Shown: positions 2,698-25,572 of the stretch, piece by piece
How the letters are laid out: each line of letters opens with the position of its first letter
Position numbering within the stretch: the first letter of the stretch is position 1
IMG/VR virus record: IMGVR_UViG_3300027749_000046
Reading direction: 5' to 3' (one strand)
DNA from: a virus
DNA length: 64,000 bases
Notes under the pieces: model-generated
The model's database searches: none
What the model was told of the DNA's origin: nothing
Seen by the model: only the letters and a program-made list of their open reading frames with translations
Made by a program: the position numbers and the translations under genes

Positions 2698-3561
2698 ATG
2701 CCACGTGGTGTTCCAAAAGCCGGCTTCCGTGCCGCTCGCTCTTCTTCCCCAGCCAAGGCCTTCGACGTAGTCCAGCTCAAGCCGGCTACTCAGACCGAGA
2801 CCGACATGCAGATCTGGTCGCGTATTGCCGACCGGTTCGACGTGCTGTCGACCTTCACCGAGGCCTGTGCCATGGGCTCATGCCGGTCCATGATCGTGTC
2901 CGGTCCAGCTGGTCTCGGCAAGTCCCACACCGTCGAGGAGACACTCCTCAGGCTCGACCCGACCGGTGACAACCACACGTTCGTCAAGGGTTTCGTCCGT
3001 GCCACCGGCCTGTACAAGCTCCTGTTCCAGCACTCGTCTCCAGGTCAGGTCTTGGTACTCGACGACGCCGACTCGGTGTTCTTTGACGATGTATCCCTGA
3101 ACCTCCTCAAGGCCGTGTGCGACACCACCGGCGTCCGTCGAGTCGGCTGGCGTGCTGAGGGTTCCCTTATCGACGACGATACCGGTGAGCGCATGCCTCG
3201 GTCGTTCGACTTCAAGGGCACCGTGGTGTTCATCACCAACCTCGACTTCGACGCCCTCATCGATCGCGGTCACAAGCTGGCTCCTCACCTTCAGGCTCTG
3301 GTCTCTCGGTCGCACTACATCGATCTGGCCATGAAGACCAAGCGCGACTACATGGTTCGCATCCGTCAGGTCGTCGAGGCAGGTCTCCTGTCTGGTCTCA
3401 CTCCACTCGAGAAAGCCGACGTCATGTCGTTCATCGAGACCGAGCAGAACACCCTCCGCGAGCTCTCGCTCCGCATGGTGATCAAGGTCGCCGACGTCCG
3501 CAAGATGGGTGCGGCTAACTTCCGCAAGGTCGCCAAGGTCACTTGTTGTAAGAATGGATAA
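2698..3561 (+). CDS. AAA+/P-loop ATPase
   Basis: Walker A GPAGLGKS, Walker B VLVLDDAD, sensor FITN; AAGGA RBS before ATG 2698. Confidence 0.85.
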   Translation: MPRGVPKAGFRAARSSSPAKAFDVVQLKPATQTETDMQIWSRIADRFDVLSTFTEACAMGSCRSMIVSGPAGLGKSHTVEETLLRLDPTGDNHTFVKGFVRATGLYKLLFQHSSPGQVLVLDDADSVFFDDVSLNLLKAVCDTTGVRRVGWRAEGSLIDDDTGERMPRSFDFKGTVVFITNLDFDALIDRGHKLAPHLQALVSRSHYIDLAMKTKRDYMVRIRQVVEAGLLSGLTPLEKADVMSFIETEQNTLRELSLRMVIKVADVRKMGAANFRKVAKVTCCKNG

Positions 3562-3598
3562 ATAAGGGACAGTTGGCTCTCTTATAAGAGGTGATAAG

Positions 3599-3871
3599 AT
3601 GAAGAAGTTTTTATTGGTTACAACTCTGGTCTCAGGACTGGTCCTACCGCAGGTAGCTCATGCCGGCGGTGAGTGGATAGGTCCACTCGTAGGTGGTATC
3701 TTTGCTGGTGCCATCTTGAATGAGATGGGTCATGATCACAGGTATGACAACAGGTACGATCGTAGGTACTACTATCCCCAGTATCCACAGCGCGTGTGTC
3801 AGCGCATAGACGTCTACGATAGGTACGGCAACTACGTCGGCCAGCAGGTAGTCTGTCGGGACGTGGACTAA
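3599..3871 (+). CDS. exported small protein (signal peptide, Gly-rich helix, Tyr/Arg-rich tail, Cys pair)
   Basis: MKK-hydrophobic-AHA signal peptide; architecture like alphaproteobacterial BA14K-type small proteins. Confidence 0.7.
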   Translation: MKKFLLVTTLVSGLVLPQVAHAGGEWIGPLVGGIFAGAILNEMGHDHRYDNRYDRRYYYPQYPQRVCQRIDVYDRYGNYVGQQVVCRDVD

Positions 3872-3879
3872 GAGCTGAC

Positions 3880-4623
3880 GTGGAGATACAGTTGATCAAG
3901 TACAAGGCGGTGTTCATATCCGACGTTCACCTCGGTACTCGCATGAGTCGTCCTGACTTACTCCTCGAGTTCATGAGGACGTTCGAGTGCGAAGAGCTGT
4001 ACTTGGTCGGCGACATCATCGACGGCTGGGCTATGTCTAGGTCCTTCTTCTGGCCGCAGGATCACAACGACGTGGTGCAGAAGATACTCAGGAGAGCCCG
4101 TAAGAACACACACGTTACCTTCATTCCGGGTAATCACGATGAGTTCCTAAGGTCGTTCTGCGATAATCAGTTCGGTAATGTCTCGCTGCTCAAGAGCGAC
4201 ATCTACGTGTCGGTCACAGGTAAGAGATATATAGTCATGCACGGCGACGAGTTCGACTCGGTCATCACGAACGCCAAGTGGCTGAGTCATCTCGGCAGCT
4301 GGGGCTACGACATGACGATCGTGTTCAACATCTGGTTGTCTAAGATAAGAGGCATGCTTGGTCTTCCATACTGGTCTCTCAGCGCGTACCTCAAGTACAA
4401 GGTTAAGAAAGCAGTAAACTTCATAAGTGGATACGAGGAGAATCTATCTTCATATGCGAAGACTAAAGCTGCTGATGGGGTCATATGTGGTCATATTCAT
4501 CATCCAAACATTCGTAAGATTGGTGAGATTGACTACATGAACTGCGGTGACTGGGTCGAGAGCTGCACGGCTCTGGTCGAGCACTTGGACGGTACGTGGG
4601 AGATAATAGACTACAAGAGATAA
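3880..4623 (+). CDS. LpxH-like (UDP-2,3-diacylglucosamine diphosphatase family) metallophosphoesterase
   Basis: DVHLG, GDIIDGW, GNHD, HGD, GHIH, NCGDWVES motifs. Confidence 0.85.
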   Translation: MEIQLIKYKAVFISDVHLGTRMSRPDLLLEFMRTFECEELYLVGDIIDGWAMSRSFFWPQDHNDVVQKILRRARKNTHVTFIPGNHDEFLRSFCDNQFGNVSLLKSDIYVSVTGKRYIVMHGDEFDSVITNAKWLSHLGSWGYDMTIVFNIWLSKIRGMLGLPYWSLSAYLKYKVKKAVNFISGYEENLSSYAKTKAADGVICGHIHHPNIRKIGEIDYMNCGDWVESCTALVEHLDGTWEIIDYKR

Positions 4624-4624
4624 T

Positions 4625-4714
4625 GGAAGGGTGGCCGAGTGGTTTAAGGCTCTAGTCTTGAAAACTAGCGTAGGTGAAAGCTTACCGTGAGTTCGAATCT
4701 CACCCCTTCCGCCA
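4625..4714 (+). tRNA. tRNA-Ser(TGA)
   Basis: cloverleaf, long variable arm, CT-TGA-AA loop, encoded CCA. Confidence 0.95.
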
Positions 4715-4716
4715 TT

Positions 4717-4793
4717 GGTCACGTAGCTCAGCTGTATAGAGCATCGGTTTCCTAAACCGAGGGTCACAGGTTAGAGTCCTGTCGTGATCGCCA
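4717..4793 (+). tRNA. tRNA-Arg(CCT) with U19-A56 elbow
   Basis: cloverleaf, TT-CCT-AA loop, D-loop AGCTGTATA, T-loop TTAGAGT, CCA. Confidence 0.9.
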
Positions 4794-4809
4794 ATAAGAG
4801 GAGAGAGCA

Positions 4810-5013
4810 GTGGAAGAACTAAATCAGTTCGTCGGTAAGGAACTATCGTCTGTTAACGAACAGATAACAGATATCGCAAGCAAGAGTGGACTCACAGTCC
4901 AGCCTTGGCCTAAGGGCGTTGGCATTGTAGCCGGAGAACCTAAGACTCTTCTCGTGGTTGTCAACAACACGGAAGAGAATATCATAGATCAGTTTATCGC
5001 GTACGAACCATGA
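4810..5013 (+). CDS. small paralog 1, potato-I/I78 protease-inhibitor-like pattern
   Basis: GTG start with GGAG RBS; L..FVGK...I...A...GL.V.PWP.G...P..LLVVVNN...II..F. Confidence 0.7.
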   Translation: MEELNQFVGKELSSVNEQITDIASKSGLTVQPWPKGVGIVAGEPKTLLVVVNNTEENIIDQFIAYEP

Positions 5014-5024
5014 TGGGAAGCAAT

Positions 5025-5231
5025 ATGAGAGATCTAGAAAAGTACGTGGGCAGGCGCTACTCGGAAGTTAACGAGGAGATCAAGTCATACGCTGAAGCCA
5101 ATGGGCTCACGGCCTTCCCATGGCCTGACGGCATCGGCGGTGCTGGCGCAGACCCTGAGTCTCTCATCGTCATCATAAATAACGATATCGATCAGATCAT
5201 CGTTAGATTCAAGCACTTTGTAGAGGAATAG
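5025..5231 (+). CDS. small paralog 2
   Basis: aligns over full length with paralog 1; start could be 5010-5025. Confidence 0.7.
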   Translation: MRDLEKYVGRRYSEVNEEIKSYAEANGLTAFPWPDGIGGAGADPESLIVIINNDIDQIIVRFKHFVEE

Positions 5232-5234
5232 TAG

Positions 5235-5438
5235 ATGGAAGATCTTAGTTCTTACGTAGGTAAAGTCTTAACATATATAGTTCTAGAAGAAATTAGCTCG
5301 AAGGCTTCTGCTTCTGGATTTAGAGCAGACGTATGCGCTAGAGATATGGAAGTCAATGATCCGGACCCAGAGGTCATCATCGTCTTTGTGGACAATATCG
5401 ATGATATGATCATCACAAAGTTCTACATACCAAGTTAA
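5235..5438 (+). CDS. small paralog 3
   Basis: GAGG RBS; DL..YVGK...DPEVIIVFVDN...MIITKF. Confidence 0.7.
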   Translation: MEDLSSYVGKVLTYIVLEEISSKASASGFRADVCARDMEVNDPDPEVIIVFVDNIDDMIITKFYIPS

Positions 5439-5513
5439 GGCCGGTTAGCTCAGCGGTAGAGCACCTCGCTTACACCGAGGCTGTCGGCGGTTCGAGACCG
5501 TCACCGGCTACCA
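5439..5513 (+). tRNA. tRNA-Val(TAC)
   Basis: cloverleaf, CT-TAC-AC loop, CCA. Confidence 0.95.
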
Positions 5514-5521
5514 TTTTTCAG

Positions 5522-5550
5522 TTGACATTAATTCCAGACTGTGGTATATT
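5522..5550 (+). promoter_or_regulatory. early promoter
   Basis: TTGACA-N17-TATATT with TG extension. Confidence 0.8.
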
Positions 5551-5573
5551 ATATACATAATGGAGATTTGGCA

Positions 5574-5981
5574 ATGAGCATGCACCTAGCACCAGTTTAC
5601 TTTACCACGACGCGTTCAGGCCAGAAGAGTAAGGCATCAAAGAGCAAGAAGCTCGCCGACGCTACGGCCAAGCACGAGCAGTGGCTCAAGGCCAGAGGCC
5701 TGCATCCTAATCAGAGAGACCTGCAGAGAGCGTTCAAGGGTAGGTACGTCGAGGCACTACCCGACCTCAGCGTCGAGTCGCTCTATGAGCTCTCTAATGG
5801 CATAGGAAATGGATATAAGAATGGTATCATGGAGAATCTCCGCAGGGAGAAGCCAGAGGTTCAAAGAGAAATCCTTGAGAAAGCTCAGCGCACTACAGTC
5901 GCCTACAACAAGGGACCAACTATGTACTTCAGTCCCGAGTCAGACAAGACCAACCTTGGTTCAGGTTCACGGAGAGGATAA
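5574..5981 (+). CDS. conserved T4-like hypothetical protein (AYNKG motif)
   Basis: GGAG RBS, ATG 5574; basic N-terminus, C-terminal VAYNKG. Confidence 0.75.
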   Translation: MSMHLAPVYFTTTRSGQKSKASKSKKLADATAKHEQWLKARGLHPNQRDLQRAFKGRYVEALPDLSVESLYELSNGIGNGYKNGIMENLRREKPEVQREILEKAQRTTVAYNKGPTMYFSPESDKTNLGSGSRRG

Positions 5982-5982
5982 T

Positions 5983-6195
5983 ATGTACGAGAAAGTAGCG
6001 AGTACCTACGCATCAGAAGACGGTAGCCTAGAAGCTCAAGTCATCGAGGTAATTAAGATCGAGAAAGCTTACGAGGTACGCATGTATCGCGATGGTAAGC
6101 TGGTAGATAAGCGTTACTCTTCTGGTAAGAGTGAGCTCTACCATGAGAACATCGCTGAGAACTACGTCACCGGAGTCTTGAGTCTGGAGAGCTGA
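5983..6195 (+). CDS. hypothetical protein
   Basis: GAGG RBS, ATG 5983 (MYEKVAS...). Confidence 0.7.
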   Translation: MYEKVASTYASEDGSLEAQVIEVIKIEKAYEVRMYRDGKLVDKRYSSGKSELYHENIAENYVTGVLSLES

Positions 6196-6196
6196 G

Positions 6197-6373
6197 ATGG
6201 AGTTCATCGACATTCAGACTCGAGACCCAATGGGTGTGTGGAGAGTCTACGACACGACAATCAATGAGTCTCAGATAATCAGGGCGCGCATGCACGAGCT
6301 CAAGGACAGGTACCCTACCTTTCAGGTACGAGCTGTAGATAAAGACGGCAAGATAGTCGATTTCTTGGGTTGA
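6197..6373 (+). CDS. 58 aa hypothetical protein (not in ORF track)
   Basis: GGAG RBS; MEFIDIQTRD...QVRAVDKDGKIVDFLG; stop lies inside the next -35 box. Confidence 0.7.
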   Translation: MEFIDIQTRDPMGVWRVYDTTINESQIIRARMHELKDRYPTFQVRAVDKDGKIVDFLG

Positions 6374-6434
6374 CATTTAATCTAACTCATGATACTATCT
6401 TAATATAATCTGAATAACGCTGTTTGGCATTGCT
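6370..6434 (+). promoter_or_regulatory. early promoter plus boxA-like element heading the RNA cluster
   Basis: TTGACA(6370)-N17-TACTAT(6393); GCTGTTTGGCATTG at 6419-6432. Confidence 0.75.
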
Positions 6435-6443
6435 AAAGAGAAA

Positions 6444-6595
6444 AGACAACTTCGGTTGTCTCTTCATGGATACATCAGAGCCCGAAGTGTGTGCACAATA
6501 ATAAACACAGAGGTAGGTCCACCAAAGAATACAGCTATTTCGAATGTCGCTGGTGAGGTGTAGGCTAGACAGCTGGTGTATCCTTGAAGAGACAA
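6444..6595 (+). ncRNA. structured ncRNA candidate 1
   Basis: 23-position stem 6456-6478/6573-6595 with one U-U and one G-U; competing UUCG hairpin 6444-6461. Confidence 0.6.
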
Positions 6596-6694
6596 TTGTG
6601 ATGGCGGAAAAGCCGCTGACTATATTAAAAAATGGCTTGGATATAATGATAAATCCAAACCAGTTCCTTCTTCTTAAACTTTACAAATAATTAT

Positions 6695-6771
6695 TCCTGG
6701 ACGGTCACAAGGTGGGACAGCAGACTGTTAATCTGTTCATCAGGTAGGTTCGATTCCTACTCCAGGAGCCA
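6695..6771 (+). tRNA. tRNA-Asn(GTT), atypical D-arm
   Basis: TCCTGGA/TCCAGGA acceptor, CT-GTT-AA loop, TTCGATT T-loop, CCA. Confidence 0.9.
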
Positions 6772-6779
6772 ACCATTAA

Positions 6780-6880
6780 AGGCAGACCCACAGATAGCTG
6801 CCTCCGCCATACGCGAAAAGTGGGATGGGCTGCGTATGCGGGGTTTGGTAGTTTTCCTGACACAAGAAAAACTATCACCA
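6780..6880 (+). ncRNA. structured ncRNA candidate 2 (kissing-loop/pseudoknot)
   Basis: three hairpins; loop CCCAC(6787-6791) complementary to loop GTGGG(6820-6824). Confidence 0.5.
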
Positions 6881-6881
6881 G

Positions 6882-7328
6882 TTAATCGTTGGTTTGATGT
6901 TTCATAATAAGTATTGGCTTATCTGCAGAAGGCACTGCATTTTTAGCTCTATTGATATCACCTTGCCAATAATCTTTTACTTGTTGTGAAACAAATCCAT
7001 TTGTAGAAATTTTTTGTGTCGGAACTGTTTTAGAGTGATCTATTGCGTGTTGAACACTATATCTTTGTTTGCCATCACCAAAAGTGCTTCCTGTAAAATA
7101 ATCACCTTTTTTTCTAGCAGCTGTAGCTATTTTATCATGATCATCTGCTTCTTTTTTTGATAAAGGTTTTAAGTTATTTTGATCAATTATTTTAGCATGA
7201 ATTTGGTTATTATTATTCATAATAGCATTTTTACTTCTATTTAATCCATCAATAATGCTATGAGTATCTCCACTTAATTTAGAATTAATATCTAAATCTT
7301 CATTTATGAATTGTAAAAATGTTTTCAT
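6882..7328 (-). CDS. putative internal head protein with capsid-targeting-like leader
   Basis: MKTFLQFINE resembles the T4 IP leader MKTYQEFIAE; AAGGA RBS; late promoter TATAAATA 7363-7370; very AT-rich. Confidence 0.7.
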   Translation of the reverse strand: MKTFLQFINEDLDINSKLSGDTHSIIDGLNRSKNAIMNNNNQIHAKIIDQNNLKPLSKKEADDHDKIATAARKKGDYFTGSTFGDGKQRYSVQHAIDHSKTVPTQKISTNGFVSQQVKDYWQGDINRAKNAVPSADKPILIMKHQTND

Positions 7329-7405
7329 TTTTTTATCCTTTTTAATTACATGAATTTTTATATATTTATAGATGATCACTACTTTGACTCAAATCTAAGA
7401 CAACA

Positions 7406-7480
7406 GCCCAAGTAGCACAGCGGTAGTGCAACGCACTTGTAATGCGTAGGTCGGGAGTTCAATCCTCTCCTTGGGCACCA
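7406..7480 (+). tRNA. tRNA-Thr(TGT)
   Basis: cloverleaf, CT-TGT-AA, CCA. Confidence 0.95.
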
Positions 7481-7485
7481 TATAT

Positions 7486-7561
7486 GCTGCCATAGCTCAG
7501 TTGGTAGAGCAGTTGATTAGTAATCATCAGGTCGCGAGTTCGACTCTTGCTGGCAGCACCA
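7486..7561 (+). tRNA. tRNA-Thr(AGT)
   Basis: cloverleaf, TT-AGT-AA loop, one U-U in anticodon stem, CCA. Confidence 0.88.
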
Positions 7562-7566
7562 TTAAT

Positions 7567-7644
7567 GAGGCAGTGTGCAGGAATTGGATACTGCGGGGTC
7601 TGCAAAACCTTAAAATGTGGGTTCGAGTCCCATCTGCCTCTCCA
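7567..7644 (+). tRNA. tRNA-Cys(GCA)
   Basis: CT-GCA-AA loop, U73 discriminator, CCA. Confidence 0.92.
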
Positions 7645-7668
7645 ACTAATAACTGTAACAAAAGATTT

Positions 7669-7743
7669 ATCGGTCAGGGAAAGTGGTAATCCGCAGGTCT
7701 CCAAAACCTTGAGAACTCAGTTCGATTCTGAGGACCGGTGCCA
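7669..7743 (+). tRNA. tRNA-Trp(CCA)
   Basis: CT-CCA-AA loop, G73, CCA. Confidence 0.9.
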
Positions 7744-7777
7744 ACTCATATATAGATAGTATGCAACTGGAGTCTCT

Positions 7778-8422
7778 ATGGCAATAATTGGTATATACGT
7801 GCATCACCCGTACTGCTCGGAAGATAGCGCAGTAGGTATATCGTCGGCTATAGGCAGCTCACACTCGTGTACTTACTTCGACGAGACAGACATAACTCCA
7901 GAGTTTCTCAGTCAGTTCGACCTTATAGTTTTTCCAGGAGGTATTGGAGATGCCGATAGGTTCAGCGACGTATTTCACTGGAAAAAAGCAGCTGCTGTAA
8001 ATGAATACGTAAGATCTGGAGGAAAGTATCTTGGAATATGCATGGGTGCTTACTGGGCTGGTTCTCACTATTTTGATATTATCAGTGGCATAGACGCAGT
8101 GCAGTACATCAGACAGCCAGATGCTCTAGTAAAGAGAAGCTATGGTACTGTAGTCAACTGCGAGTGGAATAAAGAAGAAGAGGTCATGTACTTCTACGAT
8201 GGCTGCACTTTTACTGGTAATATGACTGGTATAGAAGTGGTAGGCAGATACGCAGACGTCCACAAGCACCCAATGGCTATTATTCAGGGCAACGTCGGCT
8301 TGATAGGTACTCATCCCGAGGCACAAGACTACTGGTACGACACTTGGTCGTATATGCCTGACTCATATCACGAGGGTGTTCACTATAAGTTACTAAGAGA
8401 GTTCGTCGAGAAACTGCTTTAA
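7778..8422 (+). CDS. class I glutamine amidotransferase-like (BPL_N-type) protein
   Basis: FPGG, YLGICMGAY nucleophile elbow, HPE. Confidence 0.8.
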   Translation: MAIIGIYVHHPYCSEDSAVGISSAIGSSHSCTYFDETDITPEFLSQFDLIVFPGGIGDADRFSDVFHWKKAAAVNEYVRSGGKYLGICMGAYWAGSHYFDIISGIDAVQYIRQPDALVKRSYGTVVNCEWNKEEEVMYFYDGCTFTGNMTGIEVVGRYADVHKHPMAIIQGNVGLIGTHPEAQDYWYDTWSYMPDSYHEGVHYKLLREFVEKLL

Positions 8423-8439
8423 TAAACTAGGAATACACC

Positions 8440-8910
8440 ATGAAGAAGATCGATATAGAAGAGGTAAGAGAGTTCATAGCGGCTCAGACGCCAGAGACTA
8501 AGATCTATATCGGTGGTGACTCAGAAAGATTTAATATAAAGGGTCTGTGGTATGCAGACTACACTCTGGCCATAGTGGTGCACTACAGCGGTAATCGCGG
8601 CTGCAAGATATTCGGTGAGGTCCAGCGCGAGCGTGACTTCGACCAGCAGAAAGACAAGCCTCGGATGCGTCTTATGAATGAGGTCTATAAGATAGCAGAG
8701 CTCTACATGAAGCTCGCGGAAGTACTGGAGGACAGACATGTGGAAGTGCATCTTGATATTAACCCAGATGAGCATTATGGTTCTTCCTGTGTTATTAATG
8801 AGGCTACCGGATATATTCGTGGTATGTGCAATATCGTTCCTTTGGTCAAGCCAAATGCTTTTGCTGCGTCCTATGCTGCGGACAGACTCAAAGAGATCCT
8901 AGCGGCGTGA
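8440..8910 (+). CDS. RNase H-like YkuK/DUF458 family protein
   Basis: IYIGGDSE, RLMNEV, VHLDIN, KP.AFAAS.AAD motifs. Confidence 0.8.
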   Translation: MKKIDIEEVREFIAAQTPETKIYIGGDSERFNIKGLWYADYTLAIVVHYSGNRGCKIFGEVQRERDFDQQKDKPRMRLMNEVYKIAELYMKLAEVLEDRHVEVHLDINPDEHYGSSCVINEATGYIRGMCNIVPLVKPNAFAASYAADRLKEILAA

Positions 8911-8923
8911 TATATAGAGATAT

Positions 8924-8998
8924 GCGGATGTAGCTCAGTGGTAGAGCGCGACCTTGCCAAGGTCGATGTCGAGGGTTCGACCCCCTTCGTCCGCTCCA
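8924..8998 (+). tRNA. tRNA-Gly(GCC)
   Basis: cloverleaf, TT-GCC-AA, TCCA. Confidence 0.95.
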
Positions 8999-9015
8999 TT
9001 TTTTAGGAGGAGCAT

Positions 9016-9330
9016 ATGAGATACTTAATACCACTGCTGCTTATGACCACCGCCGCTGTAGCACAACAGCAGAGCCAGAACCCGTGTGATACCGCTCAGA
9101 AAGTACATGAATTTCTTACTCAGCAGTACGGCGAGAAGCCATTTATAGAGTTCAAAGACTCACAGGGTCGTCAGATGATAATGTATGTTAATCCTACTAC
9201 TGGATCATATACAGTAATAACTACAAATAATATAAGTTCATGCGGTGTATCAGCAGGAAGTTCTTTTGCTCCCGCAGATCAAAATAGATTTAAAGAATCA
9301 GAACCCAAGAAAAAAGAAGTTCCGAGTTAA
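9016..9330 (+). CDS. exported hypothetical protein
   Basis: AGGAGG RBS, signal peptide ending AVA, two Cys. Confidence 0.75.
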   Translation: MRYLIPLLLMTTAAVAQQQSQNPCDTAQKVHEFLTQQYGEKPFIEFKDSQGRQMIMYVNPTTGSYTVITTNNISSCGVSAGSSFAPADQNRFKESEPKKKEVPS

Positions 9331-9333
9331 TAC

Positions 9334-9450
9334 ATGTACAAGATATTCAAGAGACTAGATAGAGTCTTTGATTTCATCATCAAGATACTGTGGTTTGTAC
9401 TCTTGTGCAAGTGGCTTCTTGGTACTGATATTATCAGTCTAATAAAGTAA
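9334..9450 (+). CDS. 38 aa small membrane protein (not in ORF track)
   Basis: MYKIFKRLDRVFDFIIKILWFVLLCKWLLG...; fills the gap before tRNA-Gly. Confidence 0.45.
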   Translation: MYKIFKRLDRVFDFIIKILWFVLLCKWLLGTDIISLIK

Positions 9451-9452
9451 TT

Positions 9453-9527
9453 GCGGGTGTAGCTCAGTGGTAGAGCCTCAGTTTTCCAAACTGATTGTCG
9501 AGGGTTCGATCCCCTTCGCCCGCTCCA
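9453..9527 (+). tRNA. tRNA-Gly(TCC)
   Basis: cloverleaf, TT-TCC-AA, TCCA. Confidence 0.95.
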
Positions 9528-9530
9528 GAA

Positions 9531-9678
9531 TTCGGTAGGCAGTGTAGATTCGCGGCCAAGTAAGCTCTCCACCCGATAGGTGTGTGGCTCTCTTACTTGG
9601 CGTGGTCGGGGAGGTATAAGCCTCATAACCATGGGAACCCGTGCACTGAAAAGAGGATGCATACTCGTTCCTACCGAA
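9531..9678 (+). ncRNA. structured ncRNA candidate 3
   Basis: 9-bp closing stem, nested 7-bp and 10-bp stems and further hairpins; starts 4 nt after tRNA-Gly. Confidence 0.65.
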
Positions 9679-9783
9679 CTTAATTGATACAAGAGGATTA
9701 AGATATATAGATTTACCTGACTTTTATAGAGAGGGGTTTCTAGTAGACTAGAGCTCTCAAGTCAGTTATTATAAATTATCTAG

Positions 9784-9812
9784 TTGACAGCTATTGATCT
9801 ATATGGTATATT
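9784..9812 (+). promoter_or_regulatory. early promoter
   Basis: TTGACA-N17-TATATT with TG extension. Confidence 0.8.
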
Positions 9813-9830
9813 AATACTCTACCATAAAGT

Positions 9831-9907
9831 GCGCGTGTAGTCCAATTGGTAGAGGCGTTGGTCTTAGAAACCAAATGTTGGGGGTTCAAGTCCCTCCATG
9901 CGCACCA
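9831..9907 (+). tRNA. tRNA-Leu(TAG), short variable loop
   Basis: CT-TAG-AA loop, A73, 5-nt variable loop, CCA. Confidence 0.88.
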
Positions 9908-9946
9908 AATTTCGGTCATGATGACCACAACACGGAGAAAGACTAT

Positions 9947-10600
9947 ATGAATAAGATCGTAATTACAGTAGCAGCTATGGCTGCTGCGACTTCAGCTTAT
10001 GCAACCGATCTTCCTAATAAGAAGAAGGCACCGACGCCGCCGGTTCAAACTGTAACTGCAGACGCCACTCAAGCGAGCGCAGACAGCTTGACGATTGCCT
10101 ATGGACAAGATTTTGCTCCAGGTAAGTTCAGCTCAAAGACCGATGAAATGTATCAGCTCACGTACGCGCATAGTCTAGGCAATGGATTTACCGTAGGCGG
10201 CATGGCTCAGACTACACAAGTTCCAGGCTCTGCTTTAAACCAGAACTTAGAAGCACAGGCTGGCTACGCGCTTCCTGCTTTTTCTAAAGTTACACTGTCT
10301 GGTAAAGTTGGCGTAGGCGAGCGGTTTGGCACGTCTAACTTTCCATACTTTGCACTCTATGGCAATGCAGACTATAAGCTGAACGATAAGTTCACCATCA
10401 ACGCCCTGCAGTATACATATACATCTGCATTCAACAGCGGTCGCGATGGTTATCAGAGCCATCAGCTTGGAACTGGCGTTACCTACAACATCAACTCCAA
10501 GTACTCGCTGAGCGCCAGCGTCGCTCGTAACTTTGATACGACGACGAGCTTCAATGCTACCGGCGATCAGGTCATGCTCGGCATGAATATGAACTTCTGA
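9947..10600 (+). CDS. outer-membrane beta-barrel protein
   Basis: signal peptide, ATDLPNKKKAP leader like rhizobial Omp25/RopB AADLP.K.AP, alternating beta strands, terminal Phe. Confidence 0.8.
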   Translation: MNKIVITVAAMAAATSAYATDLPNKKKAPTPPVQTVTADATQASADSLTIAYGQDFAPGKFSSKTDEMYQLTYAHSLGNGFTVGGMAQTTQVPGSALNQNLEAQAGYALPAFSKVTLSGKVGVGERFGTSNFPYFALYGNADYKLNDKFTINALQYTYTSAFNSGRDGYQSHQLGTGVTYNINSKYSLSASVARNFDTTTSFNATGDQVMLGMNMNF

Positions 10601-10607
10601 TTATATT

Positions 10608-10695
10608 GGAGCGTGGGCAGGATGGTAATGCAGCGGTTTGCTAAACCGTACTACCTTAACTGGTAGAATAGGTTCGATTCCTATACGCTCCGCCA
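10608..10695 (+). tRNA. tRNA-Ser(GCT)
   Basis: TT-GCT-AA loop, long variable arm, GCCA. Confidence 0.95.
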
Positions 10696-11111
10696 TGATA
10701 CGACAAGCCAGACCGGAAGATGTTCCAATGCTCTTAGAGATAGAGCGGGACAGCTTCCGGTCTGATCTTTTATCTGAAGAAGAATTTAATGACAGACTAG
10801 AAAGCATATACGTTCTTGAGTTAGATAAAGTAGTTGGATACTTCTGTGTAGAATACCACGATCATCCCTATCTCTATAGCATCGCAATACATAAATACTA
10901 CAGACGAAAGGGATACTCTAAGCTCTTATTTGAATCATTCTTAGATATTAAGAGCCCGGCCCACATCCTGCATGTCGCTACTGATAATGAGGCGGCTATA
11001 GCTCTATACAAAGCTTATGGATTTAAAGTAATGGATACCATTCCAAGCTTTTACGAGGACGGGGGATCTGCATTCTATATGCAGAAAAGAGATGAAGATA
11101 AAGATCAATAA
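10695..11111 (+). CDS. RimI-like GNAT acetyltransferase
   Basis: MIRQA...D...LLEIE, IAIHKYYRRKGYS, LHVATDNEAAIALYKAYGF motifs. Confidence 0.85.
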   Translation: MIRQARPEDVPMLLEIERDSFRSDLLSEEEFNDRLESIYVLELDKVVGYFCVEYHDHPYLYSIAIHKYYRRKGYSKLLFESFLDIKSPAHILHVATDNEAAIALYKAYGFKVMDTIPSFYEDGGSAFYMQKRDEDKDQ

Positions 11112-11778
11112 CTTCTACGGCAGTCAAGATAAGTATGATCTGCAGCTCGTAAAGCTCGCTCTAGATCTAGAAGACTCGTGTGAGAGCGATGCACTCGCTT
11201 GTGGATGGTCGATCTACAATGGAAAGTGGTACCACTCACGTCTAGTTAGAATTAATCTCGCTCTGTACAACAAGACGCCAAAGCTAATTCCGAGTCATAG
11301 AGTAGCCCACGAGCACGACATACGCAAGATAGATGGTCTAACAGACGTCTATGATAAATTCATATCCCATAAGAAGTACCCTATAGTCTATGATCTGCTC
11401 AGCGACGCAGATAGATCTTCTGCCATGGTTATCTATAAGAATGATATTCCCGTTGCTGCCACTAAGTTCATAGAGTACGACTATGGAATAGAGAGTCAGT
11501 TTACTATATGGGACTACGCTGAGCCAAAGCTTTCTTTAGGAAAAAAGATAGTGGACTACGAGGTGCAGTACGCTAGGGACTCTGGTCATGAATATCTCTA
11601 CATAGGTCCGGGGTACGGTGAGAACTCTGCCTACAAAGCCGGATTTCCAGGATTTGAGTGGTGGACTGGTGATAACTGGTCGACTGATAAAGATAAATAC
11701 CTCGAGCAGTGTAGATCAGACGATAGCGTTACAGACCTATGTGATCTGAATAAACTCTATAATGAGGAAGATAGATGA
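11092..11778 (+). CDS. aminoacyl-tRNA-protein transferase (ATE1/Bpt C-terminal domain)-like protein
   Basis: ALACGW; ESQFTIWDY.EPKLSLGK..V.YEV.YA...G.EYLYIG; AYKA.F..FE pattern. Confidence 0.65.
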   Translation: MKIKINNFYGSQDKYDLQLVKLALDLEDSCESDALACGWSIYNGKWYHSRLVRINLALYNKTPKLIPSHRVAHEHDIRKIDGLTDVYDKFISHKKYPIVYDLLSDADRSSAMVIYKNDIPVAATKFIEYDYGIESQFTIWDYAEPKLSLGKKIVDYEVQYARDSGHEYLYIGPGYGENSAYKAGFPGFEWWTGDNWSTDKDKYLEQCRSDDSVTDLCDLNKLYNEEDR

Positions 11779-12299
11779 AGTACGTCAAGATGCATTCGTT
11801 CAGAGAGCACCAGATGCTCAATGATCCTAGGTTTAAGAAAGCCTACGATCGACCAACTAAGATAGACAAGACTTATGACATACCATACGTCGGTGGATAC
11901 TCGAGTGATGGAAAGACAATATACTTTGATCGCCACATGAAAGAGATTTTCAACGGCAAGAGCATCATACCATTTCTCTTGGTACACGAGAGAACAGAGA
12001 AGTCACTCATGAACGTATTTGGTCTGTCCTATCAGCAGGCGCACCACATAGCAACGTACGTCGAGATGCACGCAGTAGAGAAAGCCGGATTAAACTGGAG
12101 AGACTACAGCAAGCACATCGATACTTACGTTAAGTTGGATGCACACGAGCAGCTCAAGAGAGTCCCTAAAGATCTAGATCTCAAGCCCTATAGAGACGAG
12201 AGAGACAACAGGCTCTACTTCACTCTCGCTAAGAAAGAGAAGATCCAGTCAAAGCCAGGGAATGGTAAAGAAGTACCATATCCCGTTGGTAAGAAATAA
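11775..12299 (+). CDS. hypothetical protein with metal-binding-like HExxE / AHHIA motifs
   Basis: GAGG RBS, ATGA coupling. Confidence 0.7.
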   Translation: MKYVKMHSFREHQMLNDPRFKKAYDRPTKIDKTYDIPYVGGYSSDGKTIYFDRHMKEIFNGKSIIPFLLVHERTEKSLMNVFGLSYQQAHHIATYVEMHAVEKAGLNWRDYSKHIDTYVKLDAHEQLKRVPKDLDLKPYRDERDNRLYFTLAKKEKIQSKPGNGKEVPYPVGKK

Positions 12300-12782
12300 A
12301 GAGCCGAGCACTCCAAACATTATAGACACGAATAGAAGCTCCATGCTTACCGCGAGGATAGCAGTAGAGCTCAATACTATCGCGATCTGTAAGAACGCAG
12401 CTGCAAAGTTGAAGTACGGGCTCTTCTTCTTAGCCTCATCTCTTTCAGCTTCTAGTTTTCTTGCCTTATCGTATTGCTCTTGTCTTCCTTCTTCAAGTCT
12501 CTTTATATAACCGCTGTATGTATCTCTTAGTGTCTTATCGGTCGTGGTAGTTAGCTCAAGTTCAAAGATAGTCTGCTTGATAGACTTAGCTTGATAGTAC
12601 GCCCACGTATCAGAAGCCAGTATGTTGTTTGACAATACCTTACCGCTGATGCTTCCGCCAATGAGAGTGCAGATGGCGAGGAGCGCGGCGTATATCGATA
12701 TGGTTATCGCACCTCGGCTCTTCATGACTGCCTCGCCTTCTGAGCGAGACAGTACCTTACCTGTCTTGTCTTTTAGCACCAT
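12249..12782 (-). CDS. DUF4337-like membrane protein
   Basis: SDTWAYYQAKSIKQ and LQIAIVLSS motifs; three TM segments. Confidence 0.75.
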   Translation of the reverse strand: MVLKDKTGKVLSRSEGEAVMKSRGAITISIYAALLAICTLIGGSISGKVLSNNILASDTWAYYQAKSIKQTIFELELTTTTDKTLRDTYSGYIKRLEEGRQEQYDKARKLEAERDEAKKKSPYFNFAAAFLQIAIVLSSTAILAVSMELLFVSIMFGVLGSLFLTNGIWYFFTIPWL

Positions 12783-12783
12783 C

Positions 12784-13380
12784 TTACTTCTTTCCTGCTT
12801 TTAACCACTGAAGATCTTTTTCAATGAGAGCAATCCTCTTGTCTAGTTCTGCTCTGGCCAATGCTGCATTTCTCTCAATGGCATCTACGTGATCGGAAAG
12901 ATCATTTGTTAACTTATTAGCTAGTGCAGCACCATCAGATCTAATGGCTGAGCGAGCTTGAGCAGCATCAGCCATCATTTCCATTCGCTGCTTTTCTAGA
13001 GCTGCAAGCTGTTTCTCTCTTTCAAGCGTCATATTAGCTCTTGCGAGGGCTGCATCTTTTTCCACTTTATCAATTTTTTCTCCCAATTCACTTGCATTCT
13101 TATCTATCTTAGAGTTAAGATTCTCGCGAATTTGGGCCATATCGATAGTAGTACCCTGCGGTGGAATTGCCTTGTTGTCATTGTTAACGACCACTGCGAT
13201 CTTGCTCTCTAGAACTGTTATCGCATGATTAGATGAACTCAATGCCGTGAATAGGTATACCACGCACGAGAAGAGAATAGGAACTGCTGCAAATACGATC
13301 TTCTCTACCAACGCACTCTTACTGGCACTGGCTGCCAGTGTCTCGCTCATCTGAGCTGTCTTATCTGATACTGTAGACAT
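12784..13380 (-). CDS. membrane-anchored coiled-coil protein (lysis-module candidate)
   Basis: one TM then long heptad repeats; AAGGA RBS. Confidence 0.7.
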   Translation of the reverse strand: MSTVSDKTAQMSETLAASASKSALVEKIVFAAVPILFSCVVYLFTALSSSNHAITVLESKIAVVVNNDNKAIPPQGTTIDMAQIRENLNSKIDKNASELGEKIDKVEKDAALARANMTLEREKQLAALEKQRMEMMADAAQARSAIRSDGAALANKLTNDLSDHVDAIERNAALARAELDKRIALIEKDLQWLKAGKK

Positions 13381-24399: not shown

Positions 24400-25079
24400 T
24401 ATTTACTCGCGTATATCATGCTTGCCCAGTTATTCTTAGGATCTTGCGCAGTGACCACCTTAAATTCCTTTGATAGGTAGTCGACAGTCCACTTGAACTT
24501 GTCTTTTGTCTTACCGTCGCGAAGAGCATTCTGGTGCCATTCCATTACCATGGCCTCGATCGGAGTCCAGTCGACTACGTCATTTTGGAAGATGTCCCAC
24601 TCACCGCCCTCGATGTCGAGCTTGAGCTTGTTGGCGCCAGACTCAGCTAGCGCTCTAGAGAATCTAGTTGCCTTCGCAGTAGTAAAATCTCGGCCTCTAC
24701 TCGTAACCGTCGAGTGCATGCCCTTGTTCTTGAGCTTGTTGATGAAGAACTTGATCTCGCTATCGTCAGAACCGATAAGAGCCAGATTATGGAGAGTAAC
24801 ATTCGAGCACCCGTTCCGTTCTAAGTTCTTACGGGCGATCTCGTAGTTGTCGGCATCGGGTTCGTATGATACCACTCGGCTCACGAGCTTTGAAACTCGC
24901 GTCGAGTAGGCAGCGATATTACAGCCGGCATCCATTACCACATCAGTTGGCTTATAGCTCATCACGTCATTGAAGTAAGTACTACGGTAGCACTCGTCTA
25001 CCACGTATTTATCTAGAGTTTCAGGTCGAGTATAGAATGTCTCATTCTCATTCTTACGCGTGTAGTCCTCAAGCAACAT
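24399..25079 (-). CDS. FkbM-family methyltransferase
   Basis: DAGCNI, SYEP, N...N, KLDIEGGE, MEWH. Confidence 0.85.
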   Translation of the reverse strand: MLLEDYTRKNENETFYTRPETLDKYVVDECYRSTYFNDVMSYKPTDVVMDAGCNIAAYSTRVSKLVSRVVSYEPDADNYEIARKNLERNGCSNVTLHNLALIGSDDSEIKFFINKLKNKGMHSTVTSRGRDFTTAKATRFSRALAESGANKLKLDIEGGEWDIFQNDVVDWTPIEAMVMEWHQNALRDGKTKDKFKWTVDYLSKEFKVVTAQDPKNNWASMIYASK

Positions 25080-25572
25080 TTTTAACTCCTTGGAATAGTG
25101 AATCGCGCTTCTTGAATGCTAGCTCGCGATGGTACTTGTTAGCTCGGTTATAGAACAAGATGCCGTCGAGATGGTCGATCTCATGCTGGAATACTCGAGC
25201 GGTCATGCCTGTAAACATCTCAGTTCGTGTGTCGCCATTTGGCATGGTGAATCGAACTCGAACGTGCTGAGACCGCTTTACCTTTACCACGAGACCCGGA
25301 TACGACATGCATCCCTCGTCGAGTAGTACTTTCTCGTCGCTGGCCATAACGATCTTTGGATTAAAGCACACGAAGTTCTCAGGCATGCTTCTCATGGCAA
25401 AGACGCGATATGGAACTCCAACCTGATTAGCCGACAAGCCAATTCCATTATTATCGCGCATGAACTTAACGAGATCTTTTGCGAACTCGATTGGATCAAA
25501 CGGAGGACTTGCAAAGTCAAACTCCATGCACTCGCGTGTTAAGATAGGGTTACTTCCAGTCACTAGATCCAT
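25069..25572 (-). CDS. def: peptide deformylase
   Basis: GIGLSANQVG, EGCMS, QHEIDHLDG. Confidence 0.95.
   Translation of the reverse strand: MDLVTGSNPILTRECMEFDFASPPFDPIEFAKDLVKFMRDNNGIGLSANQVGVPYRVFAMRSMPENFVCFNPKIVMASDEKVLLDEGCMSYPGLVVKVKRSQHVRVRFTMPNGDTRTEMFTGMTARVFQHEIDHLDGILFYNRANKYHRELAFKKRDSLFQGVKNVA

Follow-up and report, generated by a model that had tools for sequence, protein, structure and literature searches.

A phage-borne, cysteine-less family of predicted ATE1/Bpt-type aminoacyl-tRNA transferases, recurrently paired with a putative zincin-like protein, at the end of a tRNA gene block in a T4-like phage

The IMG/VR virus record IMGVR_UViG_3300027749_000046 includes a stretch of 64,000 nucleotides that is also represented in freshwater metagenomes and is analyzed here at its full length (hereafter, the window); in this stretch, a block of tRNA genes is followed by a gene for a homolog of the aminoacyl-tRNA-protein transferases ATE1 and Bpt. 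The window belongs to an uncultured T4-like myovirus and encodes, among other proteins, the tail sheath, a gp23-like major head protein, the large terminase, a UvsW-like helicase, an SbcC-like nuclease, and peptide deformylase. The data sets listed for the stretch are DNA metagenomes, with no RNA data set among them. ARAGORN predicts 12 tRNA genes on the plus strand between positions 4625 and 10695, the last of which, tRNA-Ser(gct) (10608-10695; 51.3 bits with the Rfam tRNA model), is directly followed by three open reading frames (ORFs) that close the plus-strand block. ORF1 (10695-11111), the ATG of which abuts the 3' end of the tRNA gene, encodes a RimI-like GNAT N-acetyltransferase of about 138 amino acids; ORF2 (11092-11778) encodes a Cys-less ATE1/Bpt-like aminoacyl-tRNA transferase of 228 amino acids, identified by sequence and fold matches; and ORF3 (11775-12299) encodes a protein of 174 amino acids for which conserved columns and weak fold matches suggest a zincin-like fold with an HExxE-K ... 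AH ... E motif. An earlier reading of this DNA, made without database searches (hereafter, the sequence-only reading), had singled out three overlapping genes at the end of the tRNA cluster, and they are indeed present at 10695-12299 on the plus strand. ORF1 and ORF2 overlap by 20 nucleotides, and ORF2 and ORF3 by 4 nucleotides (ATGA), an arrangement that would allow translational coupling of the latter two.

Judged by profile comparisons and the predicted fold, ORF2 is a true homolog of ATE1 and Bpt over both lobes, that is, the ATE_N-like lobe and the GNAT-type ATE_C lobe. Its sole Pfam match is ATE_C, with no acyl-CoA GNAT family and no membrane-related or lipid-related domain scored, and it weakly matches five arginyltransferase models of NCBIfam. 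A homolog search started with ORF2 retrieved 31 metagenomic clusters of proteins of about 220-245 amino acids; 24 of the 29 aligned homologs match ATE_C (E ≤0.01; best, 2.2e-8), and several of the database homologs already carry a precomputed match to this family (PF04377). When the profile of the ORF2 family was compared with the PDB, only ATE1 chains were found (E 6e-5). We also took a bacterial Bpt from an aat-bpt operon as a seed, gathered its homologs, and aligned 24 Bpt sequences; hhalign of the phage family against this alignment (96.5%, E 8.8e-10) spans 180 columns and phage residues 19-199, that is, both lobes. The C-terminal ATE1/Bpt pattern that the sequence-only reading had spotted in the middle gene is thus borne out.

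The AlphaFold (AF2) model of ORF2, with a predicted local distance difference test score (pLDDT) of 92.3 and a predicted template modeling score (pTM) of 0.88, leads to the same proteins. Foldseek ranks the ATE1 proteins of human, yeast, and K. lactis first (E 2.3e-7 upward), with MprF, FemX, and VipF next. In VIA-align, ATE1 is matched with a Z score of 13.3 over 211 of the 228 residues (root mean square deviation (rmsd) 5.3); most other aminoacyl-tRNA transferases and ordinary GNATs cover the C-terminal lobe, with 140-165 residues, and a few FemX chains reach about 190. On the choice between an ATE1/Bpt fold and that of a plain GNAT, which the sequence-only reading had left to fold searches, the outcome is in favor of ATE1, with the best match and a whole-length alignment. 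The ESM Atlas assigns ORF2 to the neighborhood of viral (Uroviricota) clusters in which every second member has ATE_C, and its model of ORF2 superimposes on models of bacterial "arginyltransferase" and "aspartate/glutamate leucyltransferase" with template modeling (TM) scores of 0.77-0.78 over 212-213 residues.

ATE1 and Bpt transfer Arg or Leu from aminoacyl-tRNA to N-terminal Asp or Glu and thereby create N-degrons. For the K. lactis enzyme (klAte1), the residues that serve the acidic N-terminus of the acceptor are Arg80, which is essential (the R80E mutant is inactive), Tyr25, and Tyr87; those that contact the donor Arg moiety are Ser255, Ser273, Glu277, and Tyr289, with Ala, Ala, Gln, and Leu as the equivalents in Bpt; and the tRNA 3' end is served by Tyr173, Trp260, and Tyr303, with Lys304 also functional (PMC9351520). 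We mapped these published residues onto ORF2 through an alignment of Bpt with klAte1, in which the chain numbering is that of the paper plus 4, and the hhalign result, and counted them over 136 full-length representatives of the phage family. At the tRNA end, Lys304 corresponds to K182 of ORF2 (Lys in 135 of the 136), Tyr303 to Y181 (119 Tyr and 12 Trp), Trp260 to W140 (89 Trp and 19 Tyr), and Tyr173 to position 90 (Tyr or Phe in 128). In the donor pocket, Glu277 corresponds to E157 (Glu in 104 representatives and in all distinct viral loci compared) and Ser255 to S135 (67 Ser); position 153, the equivalent of Ser273, is occupied by Ser, Ile, Met, or Thr, and position 169, the equivalent of Tyr289, by Leu, Val, or Ile, as in Bpt. 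Furthermore, R53, which matches the invariant R81 of Bpt, is present in 133 of the 136 representatives, and hardly any variation is seen in the ATE-specific Y-K, W-D, and S-L-G motifs. Conservation to this extent suggests that ORF2 is probably an active enzyme.

The acceptor pocket is different. Tyr87 is retained as Y47 (83 Tyr and 20 Phe), but Arg80, which the Bpt-klAte1 alignment places at the first Arg of the GFRRSG motif, is not: both Arg residues of this motif are invariant in all 24 Bpt, whereas in the 136 phage family members, the residue at the corresponding position 40 is never basic (most commonly, L, A, I, S, Y, or G), and the commonest residues at position 41 (P, I, L, Y, V, or Q) are not basic either. 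His178 of klAte1 is not conserved in the phage family either. Neither is there an invariant Cys among the 29 aligned ORF2 family sequences nor a conserved Cys column in the N-terminal domain of the 136 representatives, which bears out the impression that the N-terminal Cys cluster is missing; of the Bpt cysteines C27, C71, C74, and C77, none has a counterpart, with an 8-residue deletion spanning C71 and C74, and C77 aligned with Ser49. The family has conserved features of its own, namely, an invariant R50 and a C-terminal G-F-E-W-W-T-G..W-S motif. We read this pattern as tRNA-handling and transfer machinery that appears intact, combined with an apparently changed acceptor pocket. With the Arg80 equivalent never basic, the classical transfer of Arg or Leu onto Asp or Glu cannot simply be assumed.

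As for the donor, the four pocket positions read S-S-E-L in the consensus of the phage family and S-I-E-L in ORF2 itself, compared to S-S-E-Y in ATE1 and A-A-Q-L in Bpt. The family consensus is closer to that of ATE1, so that Arg or another basic residue would be the more likely donor. Among the cellular sequences, a gammaproteobacterial metagenome-assembled genome (locus L161, 453-1902) contains a classical overlapping aat-bpt operon whose Bpt has Glu, not Gln, at the Glu277 site, and donor specificity among cellular "Bpt" proteins may be non-uniform.

Taken as a whole, ORF2 resembles bacterial Bpt (Pfam ATE_N, PF04376, plus ATE_C, PF04377) in size (228 versus about 240-260 amino acids), in collinearity across both lobes, in the G-aromatic start of the GFRRSG motif, the V/I-R-I arginine, and the W-D-(P/Y), S-L-G, Y-L-(Y/G), and Y-K motifs, and in the hydrophobic residue at position 169, equivalent to Leu201 of Bpt. 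It differs from Bpt in lacking the conserved cysteines, in the hydrophobic or small residues in place of the RR pair, in the Glu of the donor pocket, where most Bpt have Gln, and in being carried by phages, with the R50 and C-terminal motif of its own. Eukaryotic ATE1 (PDB 8TZV, 7WFX/7WG1, 7TIF, and 8E3S) is the best whole-protein structural match and shares with the phage family the equivalents of Trp260, Glu277, Tyr303, Lys304, and Tyr87, the aromatic residue (Tyr or Phe) at Tyr173, and, in half of the family, Ser255; however, the phage protein is half the size of ATE1 and lacks the Fe-S or Zn-binding CxxC/CC motifs as well as the C-terminal domain, and its family does not conserve Arg80 or His178 and replaces Tyr289 with Leu or Val. 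A third group of relatives, FemX, the C-terminal domain of MprF, Sbb17/Sba18, and Aat, shares the C-terminal GNAT lobe (VIA-align Z 11.7-13.2) and, by analogy, presumably the same chemistry, the attack of an amine on the aminoacyl ester of tRNA, but these proteins align mainly in that lobe (140-192 residues), with no match found at the sequence level. The acceptors of FemX/MprF/Sbb17/Sba18-type enzymes are lipids, peptidoglycan precursors, or antibiotics.

The family to which ORF2 belongs is large. An exhaustive profile search yielded at least 610 representatives at 50% identity (E ≤1e-3), 239 of these at E ≤1e-10, and at least 559 IMG/VR contigs encode an ORF2 relative. In contrast, tblastn with ORF2 and one distant family member produced no match in 50,697 GenBank phage records, blastn of the region against GenBank phages produced only a tRNA-sized match, and PHROGs has no family for ORF2. 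Among 301 cellular genomes from one bacterial class, only weak matches of up to 38 bits, to Bpt-sized ORFs, were detected, and the family as such was not found; the ESM Atlas contains a Bacteroidota group of ATE_C/Acetyltransf_6 proteins that are possible cellular relatives. A literature search of limited scope for phage-encoded arginyltransferase, Bpt, or ATE_C returned no relevant paper. ORF2 can thus be solidly assigned to a large, phage-borne subfamily of ATE1/Bpt-type aminoacyl-tRNA transferases that is undescribed, is Cys-less, and has an altered acceptor pocket. When 14 T4-like relatives were selected by their tail sheath, five proved to contain the ATE-like gene or a fragment of it, and it is missing from two complete genomes, which makes it an accessory gene. 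Three large phage genomes that are complete or nearly so contain short or weak ATE-like ORFs of 148-167 amino acids that comprise the C-terminal lobe only (G052:C1:707-1105, G047:C1:165272-165529, and L256, G030:C1:310860-311276); these may be decayed or split copies.

The protein encoded by ORF3 matches no Pfam, PHROG, or NCBIfam family, and tblastn against the 50,697 GenBank phage records retrieved nothing. Nevertheless, it has more than 301 homologs, with 25 invariant columns that include H71, E72, E75, K76, H90, and E97 and a P-K-D-L-D-L-K-P-Y-x-D-E segment. The metal-site-like motif that the sequence-only reading had noticed in the downstream gene is therefore real at the level of conservation, with H71, E72, E75, H90, and E97 invariant, and it lies on a fold that, by weak matches, resembles zincins. 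The AF2 model has a pLDDT of 84, and its best structural neighbors, selecase, PprI/IrrE, and abylysin and then jannalysin, aspzincins, M1 and M48 peptidases, SprT/Wss1, and YbeY, are all zincins, although the matches are weak, as are the ESM Atlas leads to Peptidase_M78 and SprT-like proteins. A hidden Markov model (HMM) alignment places the beta-strand and H71-E72 of ORF3 on the corresponding strand of selecase and on the H-E of its active-site helix (E 0.45). Like the minimal zincins (selecase, abylysin, and jannalysin, known as minigluzincins; IrrE/PprI of the M78 family; SprT/Wss1), ORF3 would combine a beta-strand, a helix with H-E at the HEXXH position, and a second helix with further ligand candidates, H90 and E97; unlike them, it has HExxE-K and an extra, very conserved C-terminal P-K-D-L-D-L-K-P-Y-x-D-E segment and matches no Pfam model. 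We consider it moderately likely that ORF3 is a metallohydrolase of the zincin-like type, in which HExxE replaces HExxH. A relationship with DtxR/IdeR or with NTNHA was considered and rejected, given that the HMM matches (E 0.12-0.9) are insignificant and fold searches lend no support. The tail of ORF3 in the window (residues 158-174) is unconserved and has low pLDDT; the next gene (12249-12782), a DUF4337 gene on the opposite strand, converges on ORF3 with a 3'/3' overlap of 51 nucleotides (12249-12299).

Relatives of ORF3 with 40-53% identity to the phage protein, again without a Pfam model, are present in 520 of the scanned bacterial and archaeal genomes, including those of Xanthobacteraceae, Brocadia, Spirochaetota, Rudaea, Methanomicrobiales, Halobacteriales, and Zixibacteria. 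In 37 closely related Xanthobacteraceae-type loci (IMPDH at least 88% identical), the ORF3 homolog is located between guaB (IMPDH) and guaA (GMP synthase); elsewhere, it neighbors ilvC together with a GNAT gene, or else a gene for an M48 peptidase, for a RadA-like protein (with matches to KaiC/AAA and Lon_C), for a radical SAM protein, or for an MCP. The guaB-guaA position was discarded as a clue to function because it is limited to one related group and the neighbors in other lineages are unrelated. The Xanthobacteraceae-type homolog, of about 214 amino acids, has an extra N-terminal C-H-P..A-P-H segment (loci L081-L160, for example, L130 and L150, at about 3300-9700).

The upstream gene, ORF1, is confirmed as a GNAT by its match to Pfam Acetyltransf_1 (PF00583; E 4.3e-11, 43.6 bits versus a cut-off of 20.7) and to PHROG acetyltransferase families. 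It is RimI-like in that the best NCBIfam match is rimI (TIGR01575), the ribosomal protein S18 alanine N-acetyltransferase, with which it shares the GNAT motifs, but the score of 55.1 bits (E 8.4e-15) is below the equivalog cut-off of 86.4. The program-made ORF list begins ORF1 with TTG (10638-11111); this start is disfavored because the TTG at 10638 lies inside the tRNA-Ser(gct) gene. The first ATG, at 10695, is residue 20 of the listed ORF, and the alignment with a second RimI model, NF007025, starts at the same residue.

The linkage of the three genes was assessed in the 80 best viral loci for the ATE-like gene. ORF3 lies directly downstream of ORF2, on the same strand and with a gap of at most about 110 nucleotides, in 54 of these loci (56 by tblastn), which are essentially those with at least 40% identity to ORF2, and the genes that flank the pair differ or are rearranged or inverted from one locus to another. 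In most of the loci without ORF3, its place is taken by a convergent gene with weak matches to DUF1415/DUF6875. In about 25 of the 80 loci, the ATE-like gene has a GNAT gene as its neighbor, upstream in all but one (L055, where it is downstream). Of the tRNA-linked three-gene module that had been proposed, what stands is the location of the genes, which in many related phages is where the tRNA block ends distally; the module is not obligate. ORF2 and ORF3 form a recurrent pair in one phage clade and are probably co-expressed; the GNAT is optional, and neither partner is obligate.

Upstream sequence of at least 4 kb is available for 39 distinct loci; in 21 of them, tRNA genes occur in the 6 kb that precede the ATE-like gene, and all but one of these loci have them on its strand, whereas tRNA genes downstream were found in 3 of 41 loci; typically, the ATE-like gene closes the tRNA block. 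The identities of these tRNAs differ by locus (Leu(uaa) and Met; Asn and Thr; Gly; Val, Ser, and Arg; or Ala/Leu/Thr/Gln/Ser), and SegE-type homing endonucleases, other accessory genes, and shuffled small ORFs surround the ORF2-ORF3 pair. Because the neighboring tRNAs vary from locus to locus, the suggestion that tRNA-Arg and tRNA-Leu are dedicated donors for the transferase is not supported; the link between the ATE-like gene and tRNAs is a positional association with a plastic region and not evidence of a dedicated donor tRNA. The two tRNAs had also been described as non-canonical, which holds for tRNA-Leu(uag) but not for tRNA-Arg(cct), an ordinary tRNA with a score of 64 bits. The tRNA-Leu(uag) gene (9831-9907, plus strand, ARAGORN; 77 nucleotides), which is context only, has an encoded CCA and a variable loop of 5 nucleotides, and hence a class I shape. 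A long variable arm is the norm for bacterial tRNA-Leu. Phage tRNA-Leu genes (uag, gag, and uaa) of 77-78 nucleotides are present in the window and in loci L002-L007, L023, L040, and L056, and a few relatives have tRNA-Leu genes of 83-84 nucleotides; the charging identity of the phage tRNA-Leu is uncertain.

Several additional features of the tRNA region deserve mention. In a scan of positions 4000-13000, two ARAGORN calls, tRNA-Asn(gtt) (6695-6771) and tRNA-Trp(cca) (7669-7743), scored below the Rfam tRNA gathering score, and the tRNA-Cys call barely passed it (32.9 bits). Two relatives encode tRNAs with a CUA anticodon, labeled "Pyl" by ARAGORN (L005, 1003-1077; L055, 7961-8035); these are potential amber suppressors and a hint of TAG readthrough or recoding in some relatives. 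Between the tRNA genes of the window lies an RNaseH_like gene (8440-8910; PF04308, DUF458/YkuK-type), which is found again in 18 related loci, at a distance of 0.1-5 kb upstream of the ATE-like gene and with 57-86% identity. The gene between tRNA-Leu and tRNA-Ser (starting at 9875 or 9944 and ending at 10600) encodes a phage protein with a signal peptide-like N-terminus, a weak match to the outer-membrane beta-barrel family Phenol_MetA_deg (E 0.0035), and homologs in L002 and L003. A scan for promoters and terminators found no more sites than in shuffled sequence; a single strong promoter-like site (9784-9812) precedes tRNA-Leu.

A possible connection with N-degron proteolysis was sought through ClpS. 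A ClpS with the N-D-D..T..M motif is encoded in 3 of 14 ATE-bearing phage records, and of 26 viral contigs that encode ClpS and are at least 50 kb long, 9 contain the ATE-like gene, including both of those that are at least 90% complete; all of these come from large phages of other lineages that lack ORF3, and nowhere do the two genes lie side by side. ClpS was found in none of the 14 T4-like relatives, and ClpP is present in one of five records. We make no claim of ClpS enrichment because 9 of 26 is not above the control value, the five ATE-bearing genomes among those 14 relatives, and because the lineages are related, the contigs are mostly fragments, and the genes are not next to each other. 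Such co-occurrence is compatible with a role in N-terminal recognition pathways but is no proof of it. Across IMG/VR, ClpS is encoded in at least 308 contigs, including jumbo phages of 200-338 kb, several of which have an ATE-like gene elsewhere in the genome (examples of ClpS are L164, 1459-1755; L165, 1483-1806, minus strand; L167, 1453-1752; and further loci among L168-L247). The peptide deformylase that the sequence-only reading had placed at 25069-25572 is there as well (phrog_2890, E 1.2e-44). The proposed rewiring of N-degron proteolysis, however, is only partly supported, with the GFRRSG Arg lost in the phage family and no ClpS enrichment seen; the other option of the sequence-only reading, aminoacylation of another substrate, may still apply.

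The interpretation we favor, with a probability of about 0.55 for the entire scheme, is that ORF2 is an active aminoacyl-tRNA-dependent transferase of the ATE1/Bpt lineage with a donor, an acceptor, and a partner as follows. ORF2 would take an aminoacyl group, more likely Arg or another basic residue, from a charged tRNA, for which the host tRNA pool or any phage tRNA could serve, and attach it to a protein or peptide at the free alpha-amino group; the N-terminal residue of this acceptor would not be the classical Asp or Glu. The overlapping zincin-like ORF3, the usual partner of ORF2 in this phage clade, may create or trim the acceptor N-terminus, and the RimI-like GNAT, which presumably also acts on amino groups, would be an optional third member. 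It is probable that ORF2 is active and works together with ORF3 on the N-termini of proteins or peptides. Several observations weigh against this scheme. The donor, the acceptor, and even the transferase activity of ORF2 are deduced from comparisons of sequences and models; the match of ORF2 itself to ATE_C (PF04377; E 1.3e-4, 23.0 bits) is below the cut-off of 25; and the only Bpt used for the donor comparison, that of L161, likewise carries Glu at the Glu277 site, which weakens the deduction of the donor. The acceptor pocket is not that of ATE1/Bpt, so that the acceptor could be something other than a protein. In ORF3, the HEXXH motif proper is absent, with H71-E72-x-x-E75-K76 invariant and Glu in place of the second His in 40 of 40 sequences, and the similarity to zincins is weak both in VIA-align (at best, Z 5.0 for selecase, with rmsd 4.0 over 90 residues, and 4.8 for both PprI/IrrE and abylysin) and in Foldseek (E 0.09-0.5 for selecase, abylysin, and PprI/IrrE). 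Finally, 26 of the 80 phage loci have the ATE-like gene without ORF3, none of 80 bacterial and archaeal loci with an ORF3 homolog has an ATE-like gene within 6 kb, and the adjacency of ORF2 and ORF3 within one phage lineage may be inherited synteny.

A rival explanation is that there is no functional module at all: the GNAT gene, the ATE-like gene, and ORF3 would be accessory genes independent of one another, neighbors only because all lie in the hyperplastic tRNA region of T4-like phages. This is a real possibility, albeit one to which we assign less than even odds: ORF3 occurs alone in the 520 cellular genomes, in varied contexts; the ATE-like gene lacks a GNAT neighbor in about 55 of the 80 loci and is absent altogether from two complete related genomes; and the homing endonuclease genes and shuffled small ORFs around the pair attest to the plasticity of the region. 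Yet the ORF2-ORF3 adjacency persists down to about 40% identity of ORF2 despite the rearranged flanks, with short gaps or overlaps that would allow translational coupling. Alternatively, the acceptor of ORF2 could be a small molecule, a lipid, or a precursor of the cell wall, aminoacylated from tRNA in the manner of MprF, FemX, or Sbb17/Sba18, with ORF3 as a hydrolase of the same pathway. The diverged acceptor pocket is compatible with this, MprF, FemX, and Sbb17/Sba18 nearly equal ATE1 on the C-terminal lobe, and the 40-50% identity of ORF3 across phages, bacteria, and archaea is what could be expected of an enzyme with a universal small substrate; nevertheless, only ATE1 and Bpt also align with the N-terminal lobe (211-216 of the 228 residues), the phage loci show neither biosynthetic nor membrane genes next to the pair, and the Pfam search of ORF2 produced no membrane-related or lipid-related domain, so that we regard a non-protein acceptor as doubtful. 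The canonical activity, whereby Leu or Arg added to N-terminal Asp or Glu would yield N-degron substrates for ClpS/ClpAP, draws on the whole-length homology to Bpt and ATE1, the retention of Y47 and R53, and the contigs that encode both ClpS and the ATE-like gene, but it is improbable given the loss of the Arg residue that is essential in klAte1 (PMC9351520), the lack of a basic residue among the commonest ones at positions 40 and 41, where all 24 Bpt have the RR pair, and the ClpS data, in which the rate of the ATE-like gene does not exceed the control and the T4-like relatives have no ClpS. Most improbable of all appears the view of ORF2 as a plain acyl-CoA GNAT or as a relic devoid of catalytic activity: the fold is that of a GNAT, and many acetyl-CoA GNATs match the C-terminal lobe with Z scores of 10-12, but the best sequence and structure matches all belong to ATE1/Bpt, ATE_C is the only Pfam match, and the Y-K, W-D, and S-L-G motifs are nearly invariant among the 136 representatives.

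A more elaborate version of the favored scheme, which we consider unlikely as a whole, is a phage "cleave-and-tag" system, in which ORF3 would cut a protein of the host or the phage, ORF2 would add a residue, probably a basic one, to the new, non-acidic N-terminus and thus feed the host Aat/ClpS/ClpAP Leu/N-degron pathway (with a phage ClpS in the larger relatives), and the GNAT would shield other N-termini. To our knowledge, amino acids borne by tRNA are used to edit the N-termini of proteins only by ATE1, Bpt, and Aat, and few specificities are known among them. If such a system exists, the ORF2 family would be without precedent both as aminoacyl-tRNA-protein transferases of new acceptor specificity and as phage-borne N-degron machinery.

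Regardless of the pathway, the combination of the retained tRNA-binding and transfer machinery with a different acceptor pocket and the lack of metal-binding cysteines predicts a new acceptor specificity, and the small, Cys-free ORF2 could provide a scaffold for studying and engineering tRNA-dependent N-terminal tagging. ORF3 represents a very conserved, unannotated family with a predicted metal site that is shared by bacteria, archaea, and phages. The carriers of the ORF2 family, with its at least 610 clusters at 50% identity, are abundant uncultured freshwater phages; if the link to proteolysis holds, these phages would steer host protein turnover via N-degrons, which may be one reason why accessory genes cluster with phage tRNA genes.

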